DNA of 64,000 nucleotides from Minisyncoccota bacterium (GTDB lineage: Bacteria > Patescibacteriota > Minisyncoccia > Phycocordibacterales > UBA9973): positions 7,453 through 71,452 of the forward strand of contig JBAYKO010000002.1 of the NCBI GenBank assembly GCA_041664605.1, written 5' to 3'. The position numbers and the translations under genes are program-made. This document shows positions 3,867 to 30,528 of the stretch, piece by piece (the stretch's first letter is position 1; every line of letters begins with the position of its first letter). The notes beneath the pieces are model-generated. The model was not told where the DNA came from, ran no database searches, and worked only from the letters and a program-made list of their open reading frames with translations.

Positions 3867-4697
3867 TTATTTATTCTCGAACTTACGTTCCTTGGTTTCA
3901 GGATCAGTTACTATTCCTCTCTTAAAAACAATCGGACCAACTTTTTCAATTTGTTCTTCTTTTTTATTTTCAATTAAACGATTAAATGGACTATTATCTT
4001 TATTTCTTTGATCGTATCCAATCTTGATAATTTGTTCTTCCATTCTATTAAAAGCAAGTAAAAGATGTATTTTTCTTTCTTTTGGTGACATTTCTTCAAA
4101 ATTTTCATTATGACGTCCCCACCATTCACCTTTATTGTTTGGTTTTGTACCAAAATAACTCCCATTAATCAATTCATATGAGCAATTAGGGCAAATGGTA
4201 GTCTCATAATAAAGTGGTTCCAAACAATTAGAACAAATATTATTTTTTACTTGAAATCCACCATGATACACCCAATTATCTTTAAGGGAGCAAGCAAAAA
4301 TACCGAATTTTTGATGTTTAAACAAGCGACCAGTTTTTATTTTATTTCTTTCACTTCCATAAAGAGTTAAGCAAAATTCCCGTCCCTCTTGTGCTATTTC
4401 TTTTATTTTCTCAATTTCTTTTCTTTCAGAATTGTTTTCTACATCATTTGCTGTGATTGTAATAAATCGGGCAAAATGATAGGCATTCAAAAGATATTTT
4501 CTTTCTTTTGCATACCCATAAAGACTTTTAATCTTAAAGAAAGAATTTTTTTGACGCTCTATATGAGCTTTAAAACTTTTATCAAGATTTGGGAAAAATT
4601 CCGGACCACTTGGATAATGCCTATAAATAAAGAGTGTTTTCCTTATTTCATCTATGTATGAATTCATTAACGTCTGGGCAAATATTCTATTTTCCAT
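3867..4697 (-). CDS. Hypothetical 276-aa protein with a C-terminal CxxC...CxxC zinc ribbon, inserted between rpsZ and rplE
   Basis: Long ORF with CSNCLEPLYYETTICPNCSYE. It has its own upstream motif TTTACTTTTCT and a downstream terminator, and no recognisable family. Confidence 0.6.
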   Translation of the reverse strand: MENRIFAQTLMNSYIDEIRKTLFIYRHYPSGPEFFPNLDKSFKAHIERQKNSFFKIKSLYGYAKERKYLLNAYHFARFITITANDVENNSERKEIEKIKEIAQEGREFCLTLYGSERNKIKTGRLFKHQKFGIFACSLKDNWVYHGGFQVKNNICSNCLEPLYYETTICPNCSYELINGSYFGTKPNNKGEWWGRHNENFEEMSPKERKIHLLLAFNRMEEQIIKIGYDQRNKDNSPFNRLIENKKEEQIEKVGPIVFKRGIVTDPETKERKFENK

Positions 4698-14317: not shown

Positions 14318-14356
14318 AAATACCCGAGATTTTTACAAAAATCTCGGGTATTTTTT
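14318..14356 (-). terminator. Intrinsic terminator (acccgagatttttacaaaaatctcgggt + T run)
   Basis: Perfect inverted repeat followed by a T run; downstream of the 14420..14980 stop on the minus strand. Confidence 0.6.
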
Positions 14357-24203: not shown

Positions 24204-25097
24204 TTATTTTATTTTTAGAATCTCCCCGTCTGTTTCAAACTCAATTGTTCCGACATCAGCGGTGTTAAAATAATTAATTCCTCGTTTCTGAAGTCTATCT
24301 AATGTTTCTTTATGTGGATGCCCATAAGAATTATTTTTACCTGAAGAAATAACTGCATATTGCGGATTTACAGATTCTAGAAATAATTCACTGCTTGAGG
24401 TTTTTGATCCGTGGTGAGCCAATTTTAAAACACTAGCTTGTAAAGAATTTTTATAATGATTAAACATATAAGCCTCTGTAATTTTGGGCGAATCGCCAGT
24501 AAACAAGAATGATTCATTTCCATAAATAAGCTTGGCAACAACAGAAGATTCATTGCTGTCTAGATCAGAAACATCTCTATCAGGAAATAAAATATCTAAA
24601 TGAATACTATTTTTTTGATCCAAAATAATTTTTTGCCCTGTCCTTGCTAAAATTTTTTCTGTTTTTTGTTTTTTAAAACCAAAAAGTGAAATCTTTTGAG
24701 TATTTATTAGATTTTCTAATTCAGCATAAACTTTAGAAGTAGAGGTATTTCCAGATTCTAAAATCTTCCCAACTTTATAATTCTTTAAAACAAAAGGAAG
24801 TCCGCCGATATGATCTTTGTCTGAATGAGAAACAATTATTGCATCAATGGTTCTATCATAAAATGGCATTACTTCACTTAATTTTCTTAAAACTTTTTTA
24901 TCAGGACCACCATCAATTAAAATTTGATAACCATTTGGTGCTTCAATAAAAATACTATCTCCTTGTCCCACATCCAAATAATAAACTTTTAAATTAGTAT
25001 TGTTTTCTGTAACATAGATTTCTCGCCAAATAAAAATTCCACCAATAACCAGTGTTAAAATTAAAATCGGCAATAAAAATTTTCTAAATTTTTCCAT
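24204..25097 (-). CDS. comEC: ComEC C-terminal metallo-beta-lactamase domain, as a separate membrane-anchored ORF
   Basis: N-terminal TM helix, then an MBL fold with AIIVSHSDKDHIGG (HxHxDH) and LAHHGSKTSSS motifs. Confidence 0.75.
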   Translation of the reverse strand: MEKFRKFLLPILILTLVIGGIFIWREIYVTENNTNLKVYYLDVGQGDSIFIEAPNGYQILIDGGPDKKVLRKLSEVMPFYDRTIDAIIVSHSDKDHIGGLPFVLKNYKVGKILESGNTSTSKVYAELENLINTQKISLFGFKKQKTEKILARTGQKIILDQKNSIHLDILFPDRDVSDLDSNESSVVAKLIYGNESFLFTGDSPKITEAYMFNHYKNSLQASVLKLAHHGSKTSSSELFLESVNPQYAVISSGKNNSYGHPHKETLDRLQKRGINYFNTADVGTIEFETDGEILKIK

Positions 25098-25147
25098 ATG
25101 ACTTTATAAACCCTGGTAGTATAAAAATTTATCGAATGTATAAATTT

Positions 25148-26659
25148 TTAACTACGGGGCATGCTTTCTACTTTATAACTTTTTAAATATGGTTTTAATA
25201 AATAAAATCCCAAAGCTAGATAAATTATTAAAACTAAAATCAATGGGAATTTATTAATTGTAATCGAAGAAAAACCAAGTGAGGCTAAAAATTTAACTAC
25301 AAAAAGTTCATAGTGAAGTAATAAATATGAAATTGATGAAAATGGAAAAGCTAAAATTGTCGAAACAAAACCAAAAACCCCGGTCAAAAGTCCAAAAAGC
25401 ATAGTGGCTGGAATAAATGGAAGGATAAGTAAGTTTGCTGGTAATGAAACAATGGAAAGAATTCCCATCTTATATAAAATGAAAGGTAAAACGAAAAATT
25501 GAGTGGCTAGGGTTGCTGAGACTAATTCTCGTAAACCAAATTTTTTTGGTAAAAACATTAAGTGTTTTTCAACCCTTGGTGTTAAATAAATAATTCCAAT
25601 TGTCGCTAAAAATGAAAGTTGAAAAGATACATCAAAAGCCAAAATCCACGGATTTTGCAAAAGCATCAAAAATCCAACAATAAAAATTGCTCTGGTAATA
25701 TTTGAACTTCTACCAAGTAAACGAGCAACTAATACTAGTATCGCCATAAGTGATGCACGAATTACTGTCGCACCAGCACCAGTCATTAAGGCAAATAAAA
25801 TTATTGCCCCAATCCCAAAATAAATAGAAAGGGTGATTGGCAAAAAGCCAAAAAACTTCATTATATTTTCTGCAACAATTGTCACGTTATAACCAGATAA
25901 AGCAATCACATGAATTGTTCCAGTTTTCACAAAATCTTGTTTCAAATCATCACCCAGCGATTGCTTTGTTCCAAGTAAAATTCCTCCCATAAAAGATGCT
26001 TCTGGGTCAGGAATTGTTCTTGAAATAATATTTAAAAATCCATTTTTTAATCCTAAAAGTCCACGCATTATAAAATTTCCATTTCCACGAGAAATAATTT
26101 CAATTTTTGGATAATTGATTTGATAAAAAATTCCATCTTTTCTTAAATATGAAACATAATCAAAAGTCTGGCCATTTTCATTTTCAAAGTTTGATGGAAT
26201 TTTTAAGGTTCCGTTTATTTGTATTCGGTCCCCATAATAAAAAGTCGGAAACATTTCAGTTGTAATTAAGGCTTTTGAGTTTACGAGAATTTCTTTATTC
26301 TCAACAACGACATTTTCTAATTTAACTTCTAGTTTTATATTTTTATCTCTTTGATCTGGCTCATCATTTATTGTTCCAATTAAAGAAACTTTTGAATTTA
26401 TAGAATTGTTTAAAACCTGATCTCCATTATTTAAATCAGAAATATGAAACCTTAAAATTCCTAAACTTAAAGCTATTAGAAAAATAGCTATAAAAAAAGC
26501 TGGCTTTTGTGTTTCTTTAAACAAAAAATGGAGCAGAAAAACTATCACTGAAATCAGAGCTAGAAAAATAATAACTGACCATCCTAAATTAAAAAATGAC
26601 CGAAACAAAATGCCCAGGGCAAAACCTATCACAAAAATGTAAAGTTTATTAGGATTCAT
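25148..26659 (-). CDS. comEC: ComEC/Rec2 competence channel, N-terminal polytopic membrane portion (DUF4131 + Competence domain)
   Basis: 503 aa with many TM helices; it ends 50 nt upstream of the MBL ORF. Confidence 0.75.
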   Translation of the reverse strand: MNPNKLYIFVIGFALGILFRSFFNLGWSVIIFLALISVIVFLLHFLFKETQKPAFFIAIFLIALSLGILRFHISDLNNGDQVLNNSINSKVSLIGTINDEPDQRDKNIKLEVKLENVVVENKEILVNSKALITTEMFPTFYYGDRIQINGTLKIPSNFENENGQTFDYVSYLRKDGIFYQINYPKIEIISRGNGNFIMRGLLGLKNGFLNIISRTIPDPEASFMGGILLGTKQSLGDDLKQDFVKTGTIHVIALSGYNVTIVAENIMKFFGFLPITLSIYFGIGAIILFALMTGAGATVIRASLMAILVLVARLLGRSSNITRAIFIVGFLMLLQNPWILAFDVSFQLSFLATIGIIYLTPRVEKHLMFLPKKFGLRELVSATLATQFFVLPFILYKMGILSIVSLPANLLILPFIPATMLFGLLTGVFGFVSTILAFPFSSISYLLLHYELFVVKFLASLGFSSITINKFPLILVLIIYLALGFYLLKPYLKSYKVESMPRS

Positions 26660-26696
26660 CTAACTTTATAAACTTTTTACTTTATAACTTTATACT

Positions 26697-27419
26697 CTAA
26701 AAACCCCATTCCTTTAAAATTTCTTTTTCTTCTTCAGCACTTTTTGCTTTTTTATATTTTACTCCAGAAACTCCTTTAACTTTTTTCTCACACTCTGCCC
26801 AAGTTTTCCATTTATAAATTTTCCCTTTAATTAAACTGAGATATGAGTAGGCTGGCCCAATATTTTTCTTATTTTTTGTCGGTGGTTTTTTTTTGCTTAC
26901 AATATCATGAAAATAAATTTCAAATTTTTCTTCATAGTCTTTTAGTTTTCCTTCATATAATTCAACTGGTTTCATCATAGCGAAACTCGTAGCGATAACA
27001 TCAGCCCTTTCATTTCCATCTACTCCACTGTGCCCTTTTATTTTCTCCCATTTTATCTTGCCTAACTTTAATCTCTTTTTATTAACTAAAGAAAGTTCTT
27101 GCCATAAATCTTTATTCAAAACTTCATTTTTGTCTTTTGTGATCCAATTATTTTTTTCCCAACCATAAATCCAACTAGTTATTCCGTTTAAAACATAGGC
27201 TGAATCTATATATATTAAAACATCTCCTTTTTTATTTCCTAAATATAAAAGTGCTTCTACAACAGCCCGTATCTCCATTCGATTATTAGTAGTATGTTTT
27301 TCCATTCCACCAAGTTCATTTATTTTATTTTTTTCTGAATCACAGATAATCGCCCCAAAACCTCCCGGCCCTGGATTTCCAAGTGAACTTCCATCAGTGA
27401 ATATTGTAAACTTTTGCAC
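26697..27419 (-). CDS. rnhA: Ribonuclease HI with a C-terminal hybrid-binding (Cauli_VI-like) domain
   Basis: N-terminal core TDGSSLGNPGPGGFG...NNRMEIRAVVEAL...HSGVDGNERAD is RNase H1. The C-terminus YKWKTWAECEKKVKGVSGVKYKKAKSAEE matches the HBD consensus (Y..W.EC...V.G..G..YK.F...EEA). Confidence 0.8.
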   Translation of the reverse strand: MQKFTIFTDGSSLGNPGPGGFGAIICDSEKNKINELGGMEKHTTNNRMEIRAVVEALLYLGNKKGDVLIYIDSAYVLNGITSWIYGWEKNNWITKDKNEVLNKDLWQELSLVNKKRLKLGKIKWEKIKGHSGVDGNERADVIATSFAMMKPVELYEGKLKDYEEKFEIYFHDIVSKKKPPTKNKKNIGPAYSYLSLIKGKIYKWKTWAECEKKVKGVSGVKYKKAKSAEEEKEILKEWGF

Positions 27420-27449
27420 TTAATTATTGTATCATATTTTTAATAAATG

Positions 27450-27490
27450 TATTGTCAACAAACTTTGCGATAGCGAAATTTATTGACAAT
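27450..27490. promoter_or_regulatory. About 40-bp palindromic site (TTGTCAACAAACTTTGCGATAGCGAAATTTATTGACAA) overlapping the -35 of the 27518 gene; an inverted copy sits at 28036-28076
   Basis: TTGTCAA...TTGACAA arms. The TTGACA-17-TAAAAT promoter ends 5 nt before the ATG. The right-hand copy is TTATCAATAAACTACGCTATCGCGAAACTTATTGATAA, and they share the GCGATAGCG core. Confidence 0.6.
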
Positions 27491-27517
27491 AGTAAATTTA
27501 TAAAATAAAATATAAAC

Positions 27518-28003
27518 ATGACTATTATAGAAAAAATATTAAATGAAATAGAAAAAACTTCTTTAAATTATAAAGGTGTTAGGGTTAATCTTTTAGGTAT
27601 ACCTCAATTTAAGAAATATTCTCCAAATTCAATAAAAACAACATTGTCTAAAATGAAAAAAGATGGGTTTATTAAACAAAATGATAATAATTGGCAAGTT
27701 ACTAATTTAGGGAAAAAATATATTAAAAGAAAAGCAGAATCATTATTAAATTTTGAATCTACTTTTGCAAAAAATGAACCTAAAAATCTTATTGTTATGT
27801 TCGATATTCCTGAGCCACAAAAAGCGGAAAGGGATTGGTTTCGTTGGAATTTAAAAAAATTTGGTTATATTATGATTCAAAAAAGTGTTTGGGTTGGTCC
27901 ATCTCCATTACCAAAAGATTTTCTAGATTATTTAGAAAAAATAAAACTTGAAAAATCAGTTAAAACTTTCAAATTAGCAAAACCCTATAATTCTAAATCT
28001 TAA
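27518..28003 (+). CDS. wHTH + Cas2/VapD-like domain protein (PaaX-like architecture), 161 aa; no CRISPR array nearby
   Basis: The N-terminal ~85 aa is winged-helix-like. The C-terminus LIVMFDIPEPQKAERDWFRWNLKKFGYIMIQKSVWVG fits the Cas2 beta1-alpha-beta pattern (hydrophobic-YDI ... R..V...L...G.R.Q.SVF). The gene is flanked by inverted 40-bp sites. Confidence 0.4.
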   Translation: MTIIEKILNEIEKTSLNYKGVRVNLLGIPQFKKYSPNSIKTTLSKMKKDGFIKQNDNNWQVTNLGKKYIKRKAESLLNFESTFAKNEPKNLIVMFDIPEPQKAERDWFRWNLKKFGYIMIQKSVWVGPSPLPKDFLDYLEKIKLEKSVKTFKLAKPYNSKS

Positions 28004-28106
28004 ATTATATTTAAAAATGGTTTAAGTTTATTAATAATTATCAATAAACTACGCTATCGCGAAACTTATTGATAATTAAATTAGTAATATTAATTACAAC
28101 CATAAT

Positions 28107-29936
28107 CTATAAAATTTCCACAATTCTTAATCTTATTTCTGATCTTCCACGAAAAATATTCTTTTCAATACACCCCACAAAACTAATTTTACTACCTATC
28201 CCTAGGTTATGTTTGTCTTTTTTATCTTTGGCAAAAAAACTAATTGCCTTAACACTCTCACTATTTTCTTTCTTAAAAATAACTTCCAAATGTAGTTGTC
28301 CTTTTCCAAAATATCTAAATTCTTCAATTTTTAAATCTTGAAAATAAAAAAGTGGTTTAGGGTTTGAAATACCAAACGGAGAAAGCATTTCAATAATTTT
28401 ATAATTTTTTTCATTCACATCTTCAACTTCCATTTTTTTATCAACCAAAGTTTTTTTATTATAATTTTTTTTATCCTGCGAAGCCTCGGCGTAGCAAGAC
28501 AAAATTCTTTCTTCTAGAAAATAAATTTCTTCATGTGAGACCGAAAAACCACCAGCCATTTCATGTCCACCGAAATTGGTAAAAGTTTTCTCTCCAGCTA
28601 ACTTCATTAAAAGTGAGAGGTCTAAATCACCGCATGATCTACATGATCCTTTTATATCTTCTCCTCCCTCCATTCCCCAAACAAAAACTGATTTTCCGTA
28701 TTCTTCAGAAATTTTTGAAGCCACAATTCCCAAAACTCCAATTCGCCATTTTGGATTTCCTATAACAATAATTTCTTTTTCTTCACCAGACTCTATTCTT
28801 TTTTCTAAAGTTGCTTTTGCTTCTTTCACAATACCTGCCACAATAATTTTTCTATCATCATTTATTTTACTCAAGTGAAGTGCTAGTGCCCCTGCTTCCT
28901 TTTCATCATCTGTTGCAAGTAATTCAAAAGCACGCCATGGATTATCCATTCTTGAAGCGGCATTTATTTTAGGCACAATAGAAAAAGAAATATCATCTTC
29001 TGTTAAATATCTTGGATCAATATACATAAGAGCTAAGAGTTTTTGAAGTCCAAGCCGGCGATTTTTTCTTAAAACTTTCAAACCGAAATAAGCAAAAACT
29101 CTATTTTCTCCAACCAAAGGAACTGAATCAGCAACCGTTGCAAGTCCAACCATATCTAAAAGCCATTTTTCCCATCCCTCACTAATTTTTTCCGAGAAAA
29201 AATTAGTGAGGGATGAATCCTTACTCTTTCCAACTTCTTCATTATATTTTCGTATCAGTGCTTGAATTAATTTAAAAGCCACTCCTGCTCCACAAAGCAT
29301 TTTAAAAGGATATTCATCATCTTCTTGTTTAGAATTTAAAATTGCATAGGCCGGAGGTAAAATAGTCCCAGGAATATGATGGTCTGTAACTATTACGTCA
29401 ATTCCTAAATCGTTCGCATATTTTATTTCATCTACATCTGTTATTCCAAGATCAACAGTAATTAGAAGTGATGCTTTTTTATTGGAAATTTTCAAAATAG
29501 ATTCTTTGTTTAAGCCATAACCCTCATCGTGTCGGTGCGGAATATAAATTTCATAATTTTCATATTTAATTTTTTTAAAAAAGTCGTTGAAAATTACACA
29601 ACCGGGAATTCCATCAGAGTCATAATCACCAAAAACCACAATTTTTTCATTTTGTTTTATGGCAAGCATTATTCTTTGCACAGCCCTTTCCATTCCAAGC
29701 ATTAAAAATGGGTCATGTAAATCATTTTCGTAAGATGGATTTAAAAATTTCTCTGATTCTTCTTTAGTGATAATTCCTCTATTAAAAAGTAACCTTTTTA
29801 CCAATTCCGGATAACCATCAAAATCTGTTATATTTTCATGGCCCAGAGGATAAAAAGCATATTTATCACCTAAAGAAAGTTTTTTATTATCATTTCGCAA
29901 CGAATCAGAAGAAACATCCATACTTTCAACTTTCAT
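28107..29936 (-). CDS. recJ: Single-stranded-DNA-specific exonuclease RecJ
   Basis: DHH motifs (VVFGDYDSDGIPG, ITVDLGITD, DVIVTDHH) and a DHHA1 region. Start taken at MKVESMDV (29936); the ORF track extends to 30011. Confidence 0.85.
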   Translation of the reverse strand: MKVESMDVSSDSLRNDNKKLSLGDKYAFYPLGHENITDFDGYPELVKRLLFNRGIITKEESEKFLNPSYENDLHDPFLMLGMERAVQRIMLAIKQNEKIVVFGDYDSDGIPGCVIFNDFFKKIKYENYEIYIPHRHDEGYGLNKESILKISNKKASLLITVDLGITDVDEIKYANDLGIDVIVTDHHIPGTILPPAYAILNSKQEDDEYPFKMLCGAGVAFKLIQALIRKYNEEVGKSKDSSLTNFFSEKISEGWEKWLLDMVGLATVADSVPLVGENRVFAYFGLKVLRKNRRLGLQKLLALMYIDPRYLTEDDISFSIVPKINAASRMDNPWRAFELLATDDEKEAGALALHLSKINDDRKIIVAGIVKEAKATLEKRIESGEEKEIIVIGNPKWRIGVLGIVASKISEEYGKSVFVWGMEGGEDIKGSCRSCGDLDLSLLMKLAGEKTFTNFGGHEMAGGFSVSHEEIYFLEERILSCYAEASQDKKNYNKKTLVDKKMEVEDVNEKNYKIIEMLSPFGISNPKPLFYFQDLKIEEFRYFGKGQLHLEVIFKKENSESVKAISFFAKDKKDKHNLGIGSKISFVGCIEKNIFRGRSEIRLRIVEIL

Positions 29937-30011
29937 GATATGATTATAACAAGTAAAGTTGAAAGTTATAAAGTTTATAAAGTTATAAAGCAAAAAAATA
30001 TAATAAATCAA

Positions 30012-30428
30012 ATGGAAAACTGTTTATTTTGTAAAATTATAAAAAAAGAAATTGATAGCTCGATTATATATGAAGATGATAAATTTATAGCTATTTTAGA
30101 CATAAGCCCAATAAATATTGGTCATTCATTGTTAATCCCAAAAGAACATTCTGTAAACATTTTTGATATCAAAGAAGAAACACTAAGTGAAGCTGCACCA
30201 ATATTGAAAAAATTATCTTTAGCTATAAAAAAAGCAGTAGATGCCGATGGAATTAATATTCACATGAATAACGAAGAAGCAGGTGGACAAGCTATTATGC
30301 ACACACACTTTCATGTAATTCCAAGATATAAAGATGATGGAATAGTCCAATGGAAATCAGTACGAGGATACTCTGGAGAAGACGAAGAACAAGAAATAAT
30401 AATAAAAATCAAAAGCGCCTTAAAATAG
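30012..30428 (+). CDS. HIT-family (histidine triad) protein
   Basis: MENCLFCKII N-terminus and the HTHFHVIPR triad. Confidence 0.85.
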   Translation: MENCLFCKIIKKEIDSSIIYEDDKFIAILDISPINIGHSLLIPKEHSVNIFDIKEETLSEAAPILKKLSLAIKKAVDADGINIHMNNEEAGGQAIMHTHFHVIPRYKDDGIVQWKSVRGYSGEDEEQEIIIKIKSALK

Positions 30429-30453
30429 GCGCTTTTGATTTTTATCCCCCAAT

Positions 30454-30485
30454 TTACATATTTACGCCATGGCGTAAATATGTAA
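30454..30485. promoter_or_regulatory. Perfect 32-bp palindrome TTACATATTTACGCCATGGCGTAAATATGTAA between convergent HIT and pgk
   Basis: Exact reverse-complement symmetry. It lies downstream of the HIT terminator hairpin (aaagcgccttaaaataggcgcttt). Confidence 0.6.
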
Positions 30486-30528
30486 CTTAAGATTTTTATA
30501 TTAAATAAACCTCAATTTTTAAATTTAT

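Follow-up and report, generated by a model that had tools for sequence, protein, structure and literature searches.

Among described systems, the one most like the locus reported here is that of PaaX, the phenylacetyl-CoA-responsive regulator of Escherichia coli and Pseudomonas (PDB 8a39, 3l09), in which a winged helix is followed by a Cas2-like domain (PF20803). The PaaX box of E. coli is TGATTC(N27)GAATCA, and the protein represses its own Px promoter through steric hindrance of RNA polymerase, with the middle domain as the dimerisation module of the repressor (PMC9493321, a review of the phenylacetate pathway). The same order of domains is predicted for a 161-aa protein, here called mini-PaaX, which is encoded in a 64,000-nt stretch of contig JBAYKO010000002.1 (the window) from a Paceibacteria bacterium of the Candidate Phyla Radiation (CPR). 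The gene lies between two related bipartite palindromes of 40 bp, and its product is best described, from its sequence, as a short member of the PaaX superfamily, with a predicted winged helix, a long linker helix and a Cas2-like domain but without an effector-binding domain. Genomes of the CPR, or Patescibacteria, are tiny, and to our knowledge no regulator has been characterised experimentally in them. A literature search returned no paper in which PaaX appears alongside Patescibacteria, 'Candidate Phyla Radiation', or both Cas2 and 'winged helix'.

The likeness to PaaX extends to the operator, which in PaaX covers ~39-40 bp with widely spaced inverted half-sites; at the sequence level this is the same unusual span as that of TTGTCAA-N24-TTGACAA (27452-27489) upstream of mini-PaaX. 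In both systems the operator overlies the gene's own promoter, where PaaX autorepresses and mini-PaaX is predicted to do likewise. There are however several differences. PaaX has ~300-316 aa and a C-terminal effector domain, PaaX_C, whereas mini-PaaX ends at residue 161 and lacks PaaX_C; its score against the NCBIfam PaaX equivalog model (TIGR02277) is 25.9 bits, far under the cut-off of 264.55; and the paa linkage is absent, as no paa genes are among its window neighbours (rnhA, recJ, comEC, HIT and pgk). The mini-PaaX site has an additional invariant GC-N4-GC core, a second cognate site lies past the gene, and there are several paralogues per genome which differ in arm specificity.

Other known systems resemble the locus in part. 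Cas2 shares the β-α-β-β-α-β ferredoxin fold, the Asp of the 'FD/YD' motif on β1, the QxSVW/F motif and, by prediction, a role as a dimeric DNA-contacting module, but in mini-PaaX the domain is fused to a putative winged helix-turn-helix (wHTH), and no cas1, array or convincing cas neighbour was found in the window or directly beside the gene in 80 related loci; the domain here probably serves for dimerisation and contact with DNA. VapD, a Cas2-like endoribonuclease toxin (HP0315 and the VapD of Haemophilus influenzae), shares the C-terminal fold (Foldseek probability 0.95-1.0), but mini-PaaX has no VapX-like partner or conserved small partner gene and has an added putative DNA-binding domain. 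Rv0674 of Mycobacterium tuberculosis (PDB 3kfw), which we take to be PaaX-like and which its PDB entry calls uncharacterized, is the best Foldseek match in the PDB and is also shorter than PaaX, but it has 234 aa and is only 10% identical. An analogy, and no more than that, is offered by RAYT genes, each of which lies between palindromic REP sites of its own, paired in a class-specific manner; the fold is unrelated, and REPs are abundant and processed as hairpins, whereas mini-PaaX sites are rare and look like duplex operators. The controller (C) proteins of restriction-modification systems are likewise analogous as small autoregulators on palindromic C-boxes at their own promoters, but their fold is unrelated and C-boxes do not also follow the gene.

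The features of the gene and its sites are as follows.

27518-28003, + strand: mini-PaaX gene, 161 aa (open reading frame (ORF) list and homologue alignment).
27518-27757, + strand: putative N-terminal winged-helix domain (residues 1-62) and long linker helix (63-80) (AlphaFold 2 (AF2) secondary structure and weak S19e wHTH matches).
27779-27979, + strand: Cas2-like ferredoxin-fold domain, approximately residues 88-154, β-α-β-β-α-β (Pfam, NCBIfam and AF2).
27451-27490, no strand: upstream 40-bp bipartite palindrome, a putative operator, with arms TTGTCAA/TTGACAA, an A/T linker and the core GC-GATA-GC (sequence and site scan).
28037-28076, no strand: downstream 40-bp bipartite palindrome with arms TTATCAA/TTGATAA and the core GC-TATC-GC (sequence and site scan).
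27483-27511, + strand: mini-PaaX promoter, -35 TTGACA (27483-27488), 17-nt spacer, -10 TAAAAT (27506-27511) (11/12 consensus match).

The start codon of mini-PaaX is taken as correct because the N-terminus is kept in all homologues. The strongest profile match was to Pfam PaaX_M (PF20803, the central Cas2-like domain of PaaX) over residues 92-154 (E=2.1e-14, 53.8 bits against a gathering score of 24), and matches to Pfam CRISPR_Cas2 (26.2 bits, cut-off 23.8) and NCBIfam cas2 (TIGR01573; 31.5 bits, cut-off 24.5) were also above their thresholds. The PaaX equivalog alignment is co-linear, with residues 35-150 on positions 33-148 of a 279-position model, and spans both the wHTH and the middle domain. 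The wHTH itself matched S19e (E=0.002) and HTH_45 weakly, and no Pfam wHTH model reached its cut-off; PADLOC returned only Cas2 models and weak winged-helix models for this protein. In the AF2 model residues 1-62 form helix and hairpin elements in the order H-β-β-H-β-β, with a predicted recognition helix at residues 36-48, followed by a long helix (63-80) and a β-α-β-β-α-β domain (91-152). Foldseek comparison with the PDB returned, in order, Rv0674, VapD, E. coli PaaX (8a39) and many Cas2 chains at probabilities of 0.9-1.0. When the PDB was searched by sequence, neither the family profile nor the isolated C-terminal domain gave anything significant, the only matches being weak ones to S19e and Cas2. 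The first-pass annotation had read a winged-helix-like N-terminus and a Cas2/VapD-fold C-terminal half in this 161-aa product, and its reading of the C-terminal half is borne out by the profile and fold matches.

The segment LIVMFDIPE...QKSVW aligns with the Cas2 motifs FFDLP...QKSVY and YDV...QRSAF (chains 6jhz and 3exc), and Asp96 therefore occupies the position of the Asp in the 'FD/YD' motif on β1 of Cas2. This residue is invariant among the mini-PaaX homologues, and the Cas2-like domain may therefore have a catalytic role. The protein could be an active nuclease like Cas2 or the VapD toxin, whose main job is RNA or DNA cleavage in a toxin or defence-like role and whose wHTH only targets or autoregulates it. 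The Cas2 models above cut-off, the aligned motifs including the β1 Asp, the presence of VapD among the top fold matches, and a domain conserved far beyond the need of a mere dimerisation module would all fit such an enzyme. We nevertheless regard it as unlikely, since PaaX_M, the module through which a described repressor dimerises, outscores every other profile (53.8 bits, with Cas2 at 26.2); an antitoxin-like partner and a conserved defence neighbour are both absent, and a weak Cas3-type match is the only sign of another cas gene among the families listed; and the cognate-site architecture and promoter overlap described below are what a repressor needs.

Both window sites are imperfect palindromes with arms of 19-20 nt that are 84-85% complementary around a 4-nt centre, and the downstream one sits between the stop codons of mini-PaaX and the convergent recJ. 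The presence of related ~40-bp palindromes on both sides, as first annotated, is confirmed, the two being 80% identical; to describe them as inverted copies says little. A base-by-base count by hand shows that they are likewise 80% alike with one reverse-complemented, and across the family the asymmetric centres of the upstream and downstream sites are inverted in 16 loci and direct in 16, so inversion is not a property of the family. The 9-mer GCGATAGCG, singled out in the first-pass annotation, is not significant by itself (1.24 matches expected by chance); the significance of the sites lies in the enrichment of the whole bipartite palindrome.

To define the family, species genomes in GTDB were scanned, which gave 353 stretches encoding the protein, and 80 of these loci were fetched for comparison. 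There are more than 1,500 homologues at 90% clustering, all of ~160 aa and all from Patescibacteria, Paceibacterota or Nomurabacteria, and their annotations vary between Cas2, PaaX and hypothetical; an exhaustive profile search returned 3,282 clusters at 50% identity, mostly of 155-185 aa, and PF20803 is present in all 120 homologues listed. The closest non-self homologue among 5.8 billion proteins searched is 70% identical. At least 12 assemblies contribute two or three loci, and these within-genome paralogues are 52-82% identical. An equivalent upstream site is centred 36-55 bp ahead of the start codon in approximately 66 of the 80 loci, and an equivalent downstream site 14-100 bp past the stop codon in approximately 68.

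Alignment of 134 sites on their dyad gave the consensus half-site aaTGTTACA-(A/T)3-yTCTGC-nA, which resolves into an invariant GC-N4-GC core, a non-symmetric A/T linker and symmetric outer arms. Complementarity between the halves is 100% at positions 3-4 and 94-99% at positions 13-17, but only 35-54% in the linker (positions 8-10), with many T.T oppositions. Most sites have GATA or TATC as their centre and so fall one substitution short of a perfect palindrome; in other clades the centre is CATG, ACGT, TATA, GATC or GGCC, often self-complementary. Each half-site thus consists of two symmetric blocks about one helical turn apart with an A/T tract between them; since the blocks are symmetric and the linker is free to mispair, the sites appear to be duplex DNA read by a symmetric protein from one face of the helix, and the pattern fits duplex recognition by a symmetric dimer better than it fits a hairpin. 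When a strict bipartite site was required to have GC at positions 3-4 from the dyad, at least 5/6 complementary positions at 12-17 and at least 2/3 at 5-7, 113 such sites were found in the 598 kb of the 80 loci against 0.4 expected in shuffles, and 106 of these lie immediately beside a homologous gene. Three such sites, no more, are present in the window: the pair around mini-PaaX and a third at 30449-30488.

The following features adjoin the upstream and downstream sites.

26697-27419, - strand: rnhA (RNase H), the divergent neighbour (ORF list and annotation).
27431-27458, - strand: divergent promoter-like site of rnhA, -35 TTGACA (27458), 16-nt spacer, TATGAT (11/12, consensus match only).
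28107-30011, - strand: recJ, the convergent neighbour (ORF list and annotation).

For each of the two best sigma-70-type matches in 27300-28300, the -35 box falls in a different arm of the upstream palindrome. The TTGACA of mini-PaaX lies inside the right arm, so that the TTGACA-17-TAAAAT promoter overlaps the left-hand palindrome as was first noted, and the -35-like TTGACA of rnhA lies inside the left arm. Related loci have a -10 hexamer at +23/24 or +32, counted from the dyad of the upstream site. In mini-PaaX itself the start codon is 6 nt past the -10; in the related loci the gap between the end of the hexamer and the start codon is 6-7 nt in 49 of 65 cases, from which the mRNAs of the family are probably leaderless. 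Upstream of both mini-PaaX and rnhA there is a -10-like hexamer at only 6-11 nt from the start codon, and neither gene has a Shine-Dalgarno sequence (27506-27520 and 27417-27436, respectively).

The sites vary together with the proteins they flank. Between the two sites of one gene the arms are identical at a mean of 8.77/10 positions, compared with 5.22/10 between loci; upstream and downstream arms are at least 8/10 identical in 53 of 56 loci, and the arms of paralogues within one genome share only 3-7/10. Judged from these comparisons, the flanking sites appear to belong to the adjacent protein, and the type of arm tracks the protein subfamily. The variation within the protein is distributed in a parallel manner: mean column entropy in the family alignment is 1.73 bits for the N-terminal, winged-helix half and 0.57 bits for the nearly invariant Cas2-like core, just as the arms vary and the core of the site does not. 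Residues 38-42, in the predicted recognition helix, are associated with arms as follows.

SL-SGT: arm TACTTATAA.
SL-RGT or SL-RAT: arm TTGTTA(G/C)A.
RS[IV]-RTT...EKELSGI: arm TGACACA or TGATACA.
GSL-KSG: arm AAGGTAC.
TSF-ANA: arm GACTCACCA.

S-G at residues 40-41 is accompanied by a TACT arm in 15/16 proteins. In the Cas2-like domain, A at centre position 2 of the site (centres ACGT or AGGT) goes together with H or Q at residue 122, the K of QKSVW, in 8 of 9 proteins, and K or R at this residue never occurs with such a centre (0/68). These associations fit winged helices that read the arms and a Cas2-like dimer that lies over the dyad.

From these observations of domain content, site architecture and position, conservation and co-variation we infer that mini-PaaX probably acts as a dimer, mediated by its Cas2-like domain, on ~40 bp of duplex DNA, and that it negatively regulates its own gene and possibly controls rnhA. 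It would dimerise through the Cas2-like domain as PaaX does and occupy the double-stranded bipartite palindrome, with the two variable winged helices reading the paralogue-specific outer arms, ~12-17 bp either side of the dyad, and the invariant Cas2-like dimer over the invariant GC-N4-GC core. Binding at the upstream site would repress mini-PaaX, and possibly the divergent rnhA, because this site covers the -35 of mini-PaaX as well as the -35-like box of rnhA, and a bound protein would block the core promoter. The downstream site could be an anchor for a loop with the upstream site, a protein roadblock, or a weak hairpin; the leading ideas are the loop anchor and the roadblock or insulator. 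A roadblock would shield the small autoregulated gene from convergent or read-through transcription that comes from recJ. An autoregulated PaaX-like regulator was one of two alternatives put forward in the first-pass annotation, and the profile, fold and comparative evidence favours it.

Several points weigh against this model. A regulator whose main conserved targets are at both ends of its own gene is unusual, and mini-PaaX has no effector domain that would take up an input signal. In the related loci there is no promoter at the downstream site and no enrichment of -10 hexamers in either direction, and the distance between the upstream and downstream sites (538-586 bp) has no 10-11 bp periodicity, so there is no helical phasing and no support for phase-locked looping. 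The AF2 model is moderate (predicted local distance difference test score 75.5, predicted template modelling score 0.39) with an uncertain arrangement of domains, and because this two-domain geometry is uncertain the Foldseek E-values are weak, at 0.016 or worse. Shared descent confounds the co-variation of protein and arm, and when protein columns were compared with arm bases by mutual information, high-entropy columns and phylogeny dominated and the recognition helix did not stand out. Finally, an aspartate conserved at the catalytic position of Cas2 is unnecessary for pure DNA binding.

The family matters beyond this gene. A protein-to-DNA recognition code should be readable from genomes alone in a large and widespread family, because each member has a probable binding site on both sides of its gene; the Cas2 fold would be seen as the hub of a sequence-specific DNA-binding dimer, a use outside CRISPR; and mini-PaaX provides a minimal version of PaaX without an effector domain. 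It also explains why such genes are routinely mis-annotated as 'CRISPR-associated endonuclease Cas2' in genomes that have no CRISPR.

The third site in the window is not beside a mini-PaaX gene.

30449-30488, no strand: orphan site of the same architecture, with arms TTACATAT...ATATGTAA and the core GC-CATG-GC (17/18 arm positions complementary).

It is written TTACATATTTAC-GC-CATG-GC-GTAAATATGTAA and lies between the convergent HIT and pgk genes, beside a separate canonical terminator centred at 30423. Because its arms differ from those of the gene under study, the orphan probably serves another paralogue, one whose gene lies outside the window. It is not conserved in the orthologous loci. 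Orphan sites occur at ~1 per 100 kb, with one in the window and approximately six in 560 kb of flanks. A site-first scan of metagenomes with a 20-mer core gave nine matches, seven of them true bipartite palindromes: two flank a homologous gene, one is on the promoter of a gene for a Cys-rich protein, 2 kb from a distant mini-PaaX homologue, and four are orphans. Three of these four are identical copies on three contigs of one sample (Ga0180732). Two loci, L026 and L053, have the gene's own site in a third copy, so placed as to bracket an adjacent gene. Because of the orphan sites and these third sites at neighbours, mini-PaaX proteins probably have small regulons beyond their own gene, the further orphan sites being the places where they would act, and the Cys-rich protein family is a candidate member.

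Further details of these loci were recorded. The large Cys-rich family (N-terminus ...KICQNCK...) adjoins palindromes in two unrelated loci, L053 (2161-3900) and L102 (~4390 onwards). The identical palindromes of Ga0180732, ACCTACACGCAACTCTGC(TATC/GATA)GCAGAGTTGCGTGTAGGT, are at L096 2977, L100 5590 and L103 986; one flank, as translated, is common to L096 and L100, and similar genes of ~205 aa lie ~250-300 bp away in L100 and L103. No mini-PaaX homologue was found within the fetched DNA of these three loci.

The palindromes might instead be nucleic-acid hairpins, for instance bidirectional terminators or REP-like elements, with an incidental link to the gene or with a protein that binds the hairpin. 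In favour of this, the folding energy of the sites as RNA is -14 to -17 kcal/mol (z-scores -4.9 to -7.7), convergent genes surround the downstream and orphan sites, there is a tendency towards A in the 5' flank and T in the 3' flank, and orphan copies exist, including the three identical ones in one metagenome. The canonical terminators of the window are however different and stronger (-23 kcal/mol, a GC-rich stem and a T-run), whereas the stems of the sites are AT-rich with linker mismatches; no terminator-like site was found in 27300-28300, and the downstream palindrome has no terminator-like tail. In addition, the linker is non-complementary in about half of the sites and would put an internal loop in the stem, a hairpin loop has no need of the self-complementary tetramers that many sites have at their centre, the upstream site precedes the transcription start, and the sites, unlike REP families, are rare away from the gene. 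We therefore think hairpins very unlikely as the function of these sites, and the concern that the palindromes might prove to be a general terminator motif is answered by the 106 of 113 family sites that flank a homologous gene and by the different appearance of the window's terminators. An Rfam scan of 26500-29000 gave only two sub-threshold chance matches.

The canonical terminators have palindrome centres at 14335, 17697, 20890, 34082, 45512, 47485 and 55666. They are symmetric, with an A-run, a GC-rich stem, a loop, the second half of the stem and a T-run, which makes them distinct from the operator-type palindromes, and they probably work in both directions.

The genomic context of the gene bears on whether the site-gene-site unit is mobile. 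The order comEC-rnhA-[gene]-recJ-HIT-pgk is common to 16 of the 80 loci, and other groups of paralogues have their own conserved neighbours, namely glutamate dehydrogenase (gdh) with tsaD, an AddA/UvrD-like helicase, or thymidylate kinase (tmk). Eight further loci were chosen through RecJ (52-57% identical); in all eight recJ and rnhA are adjacent or nearly so and mini-PaaX is absent, and no family palindrome, not even a solo site, was found at the seven junctions with DNA. The comparison of the rnhA-recJ junction in relatives, as first proposed, thus has a double outcome, with the unit missing whole from every relative chosen through RecJ but its synteny kept in the 16 loci. Filled and empty junctions interleave on an unbootstrapped neighbour-joining tree of RecJ. 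At one locus, L042 (JACQGC010000004.1, ~3900-4600), the unit is inverted relative to recJ and rnhA when compared with the other 15 orthologous loci, which is the product expected from recombination between the two flanking palindromes. Site, gene and site are gained or lost as a unit and can be flipped.

These observations would suit a small mobile cassette, the second alternative of the first-pass annotation, or an invertible one; recombination would take place at the terminal palindromes, and the unit would be moved, excised or flipped by the Cas2-like protein or by a host recombinase. The joint absence of gene and palindromes, the interleaved junctions, the inversion, the several paralogues per genome and the invariant Asp96 can all be read in this way. 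No transposase or integrase was found near mini-PaaX genes, however, either in the window annotation or among the neighbours in related loci, and neither a target-site duplication nor a flanking direct repeat was seen when the flanks were read, which is not a rigorous test. There has been no recent copying, given that the closest homologue is 70% identical and within-genome paralogues 52-82%, and each group of paralogues keeps its own housekeeping neighbours (recJ, gdh, the addA-like gene or tmk). The arms of the recJ-linked copies are all related, of the form TGTYAA; the upstream site forms part of a promoter; and no family site or homologue was found among 15 viral-contig matches to the core 16-mer. 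Those 15 matches had neither extended palindromes nor the gene and were rejected as chance matches.

Mobility of the unit is thus not supported by positive evidence, and we consider a cassette highly improbable, with whole-unit absence and the inversion in L042 giving it no more than a weak flavour. As the arms are related and there are no recent copies, the economical reading is vertical descent with repeated loss and one inversion between 40-bp inverted repeats. A bolder version, to which we give equally little credence, is that the Cas2-like domain itself reads the GC-N4-GC core and possibly nicks or recombines it through Asp96, making site-gene-site a self-recognising unit that is inverted, lost or gained whole. 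Were this so, a member of the Cas2 family would have 'repeats' of its own outside CRISPR, which would bear on how Cas2 came to act at palindromic repeats. In a milder version, mini-PaaX may represent a programmable family of CPR transcription factors in which the Cas2 fold has been turned into a sequence-reading DNA head.

The CRISPR context was searched in the same window. Tandem Repeats Finder found no CRISPR-like array, and PADLOC, run on the 72 window ORFs, found no other convincing cas gene among the 25 of 29 families listed, in agreement with what had first been annotated: the Cas2 models matched the mini-PaaX protein only, and there was one weak Cas3-type match (E=2e-7). No association with cas1 was seen, as there is none in the window and the genes directly upstream and downstream in the 80 loci cluster as housekeeping genes. 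Mini-PaaX looks like a self-regulating transcription factor, neither a remnant of CRISPR nor a jumping gene.

A Cas1 gene (PF01867) does occur ~1.2 kb from recJ in the JGI 3300067032 contig with P0277, in a pgk-recJ-rnhA region; mini-PaaX is absent from this region. In the window the PADLOC model for LmuA (Lamassu) matches one ORF at E=4.6e-29 and Avs1a another at 2e-13, possibly as generic domain matches.

Two of the related loci, L064 (3350-3928) and L070 (606-1184), encode a distant wHTH-Cas2-like paralogue of 192 aa (WDGQWRVVLLDLPE...) in tandem with the family gene and directly upstream of it, and this paralogue has its own GC-GACC-GC palindrome 46 bp before its start. In the window, the mechanically called ORF of recJ has 634 aa with a TTG start and exceeds the deposited RecJ (609 aa, 100% identical) by 25 aa, so the true start is probably downstream of the one listed. 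ComEC is split in two at 24204-26659, into a Competence/DUF4131 protein (503 aa) and a separate metallo-beta-lactamase protein (297 aa), and the same two-ORF split is found in related loci.

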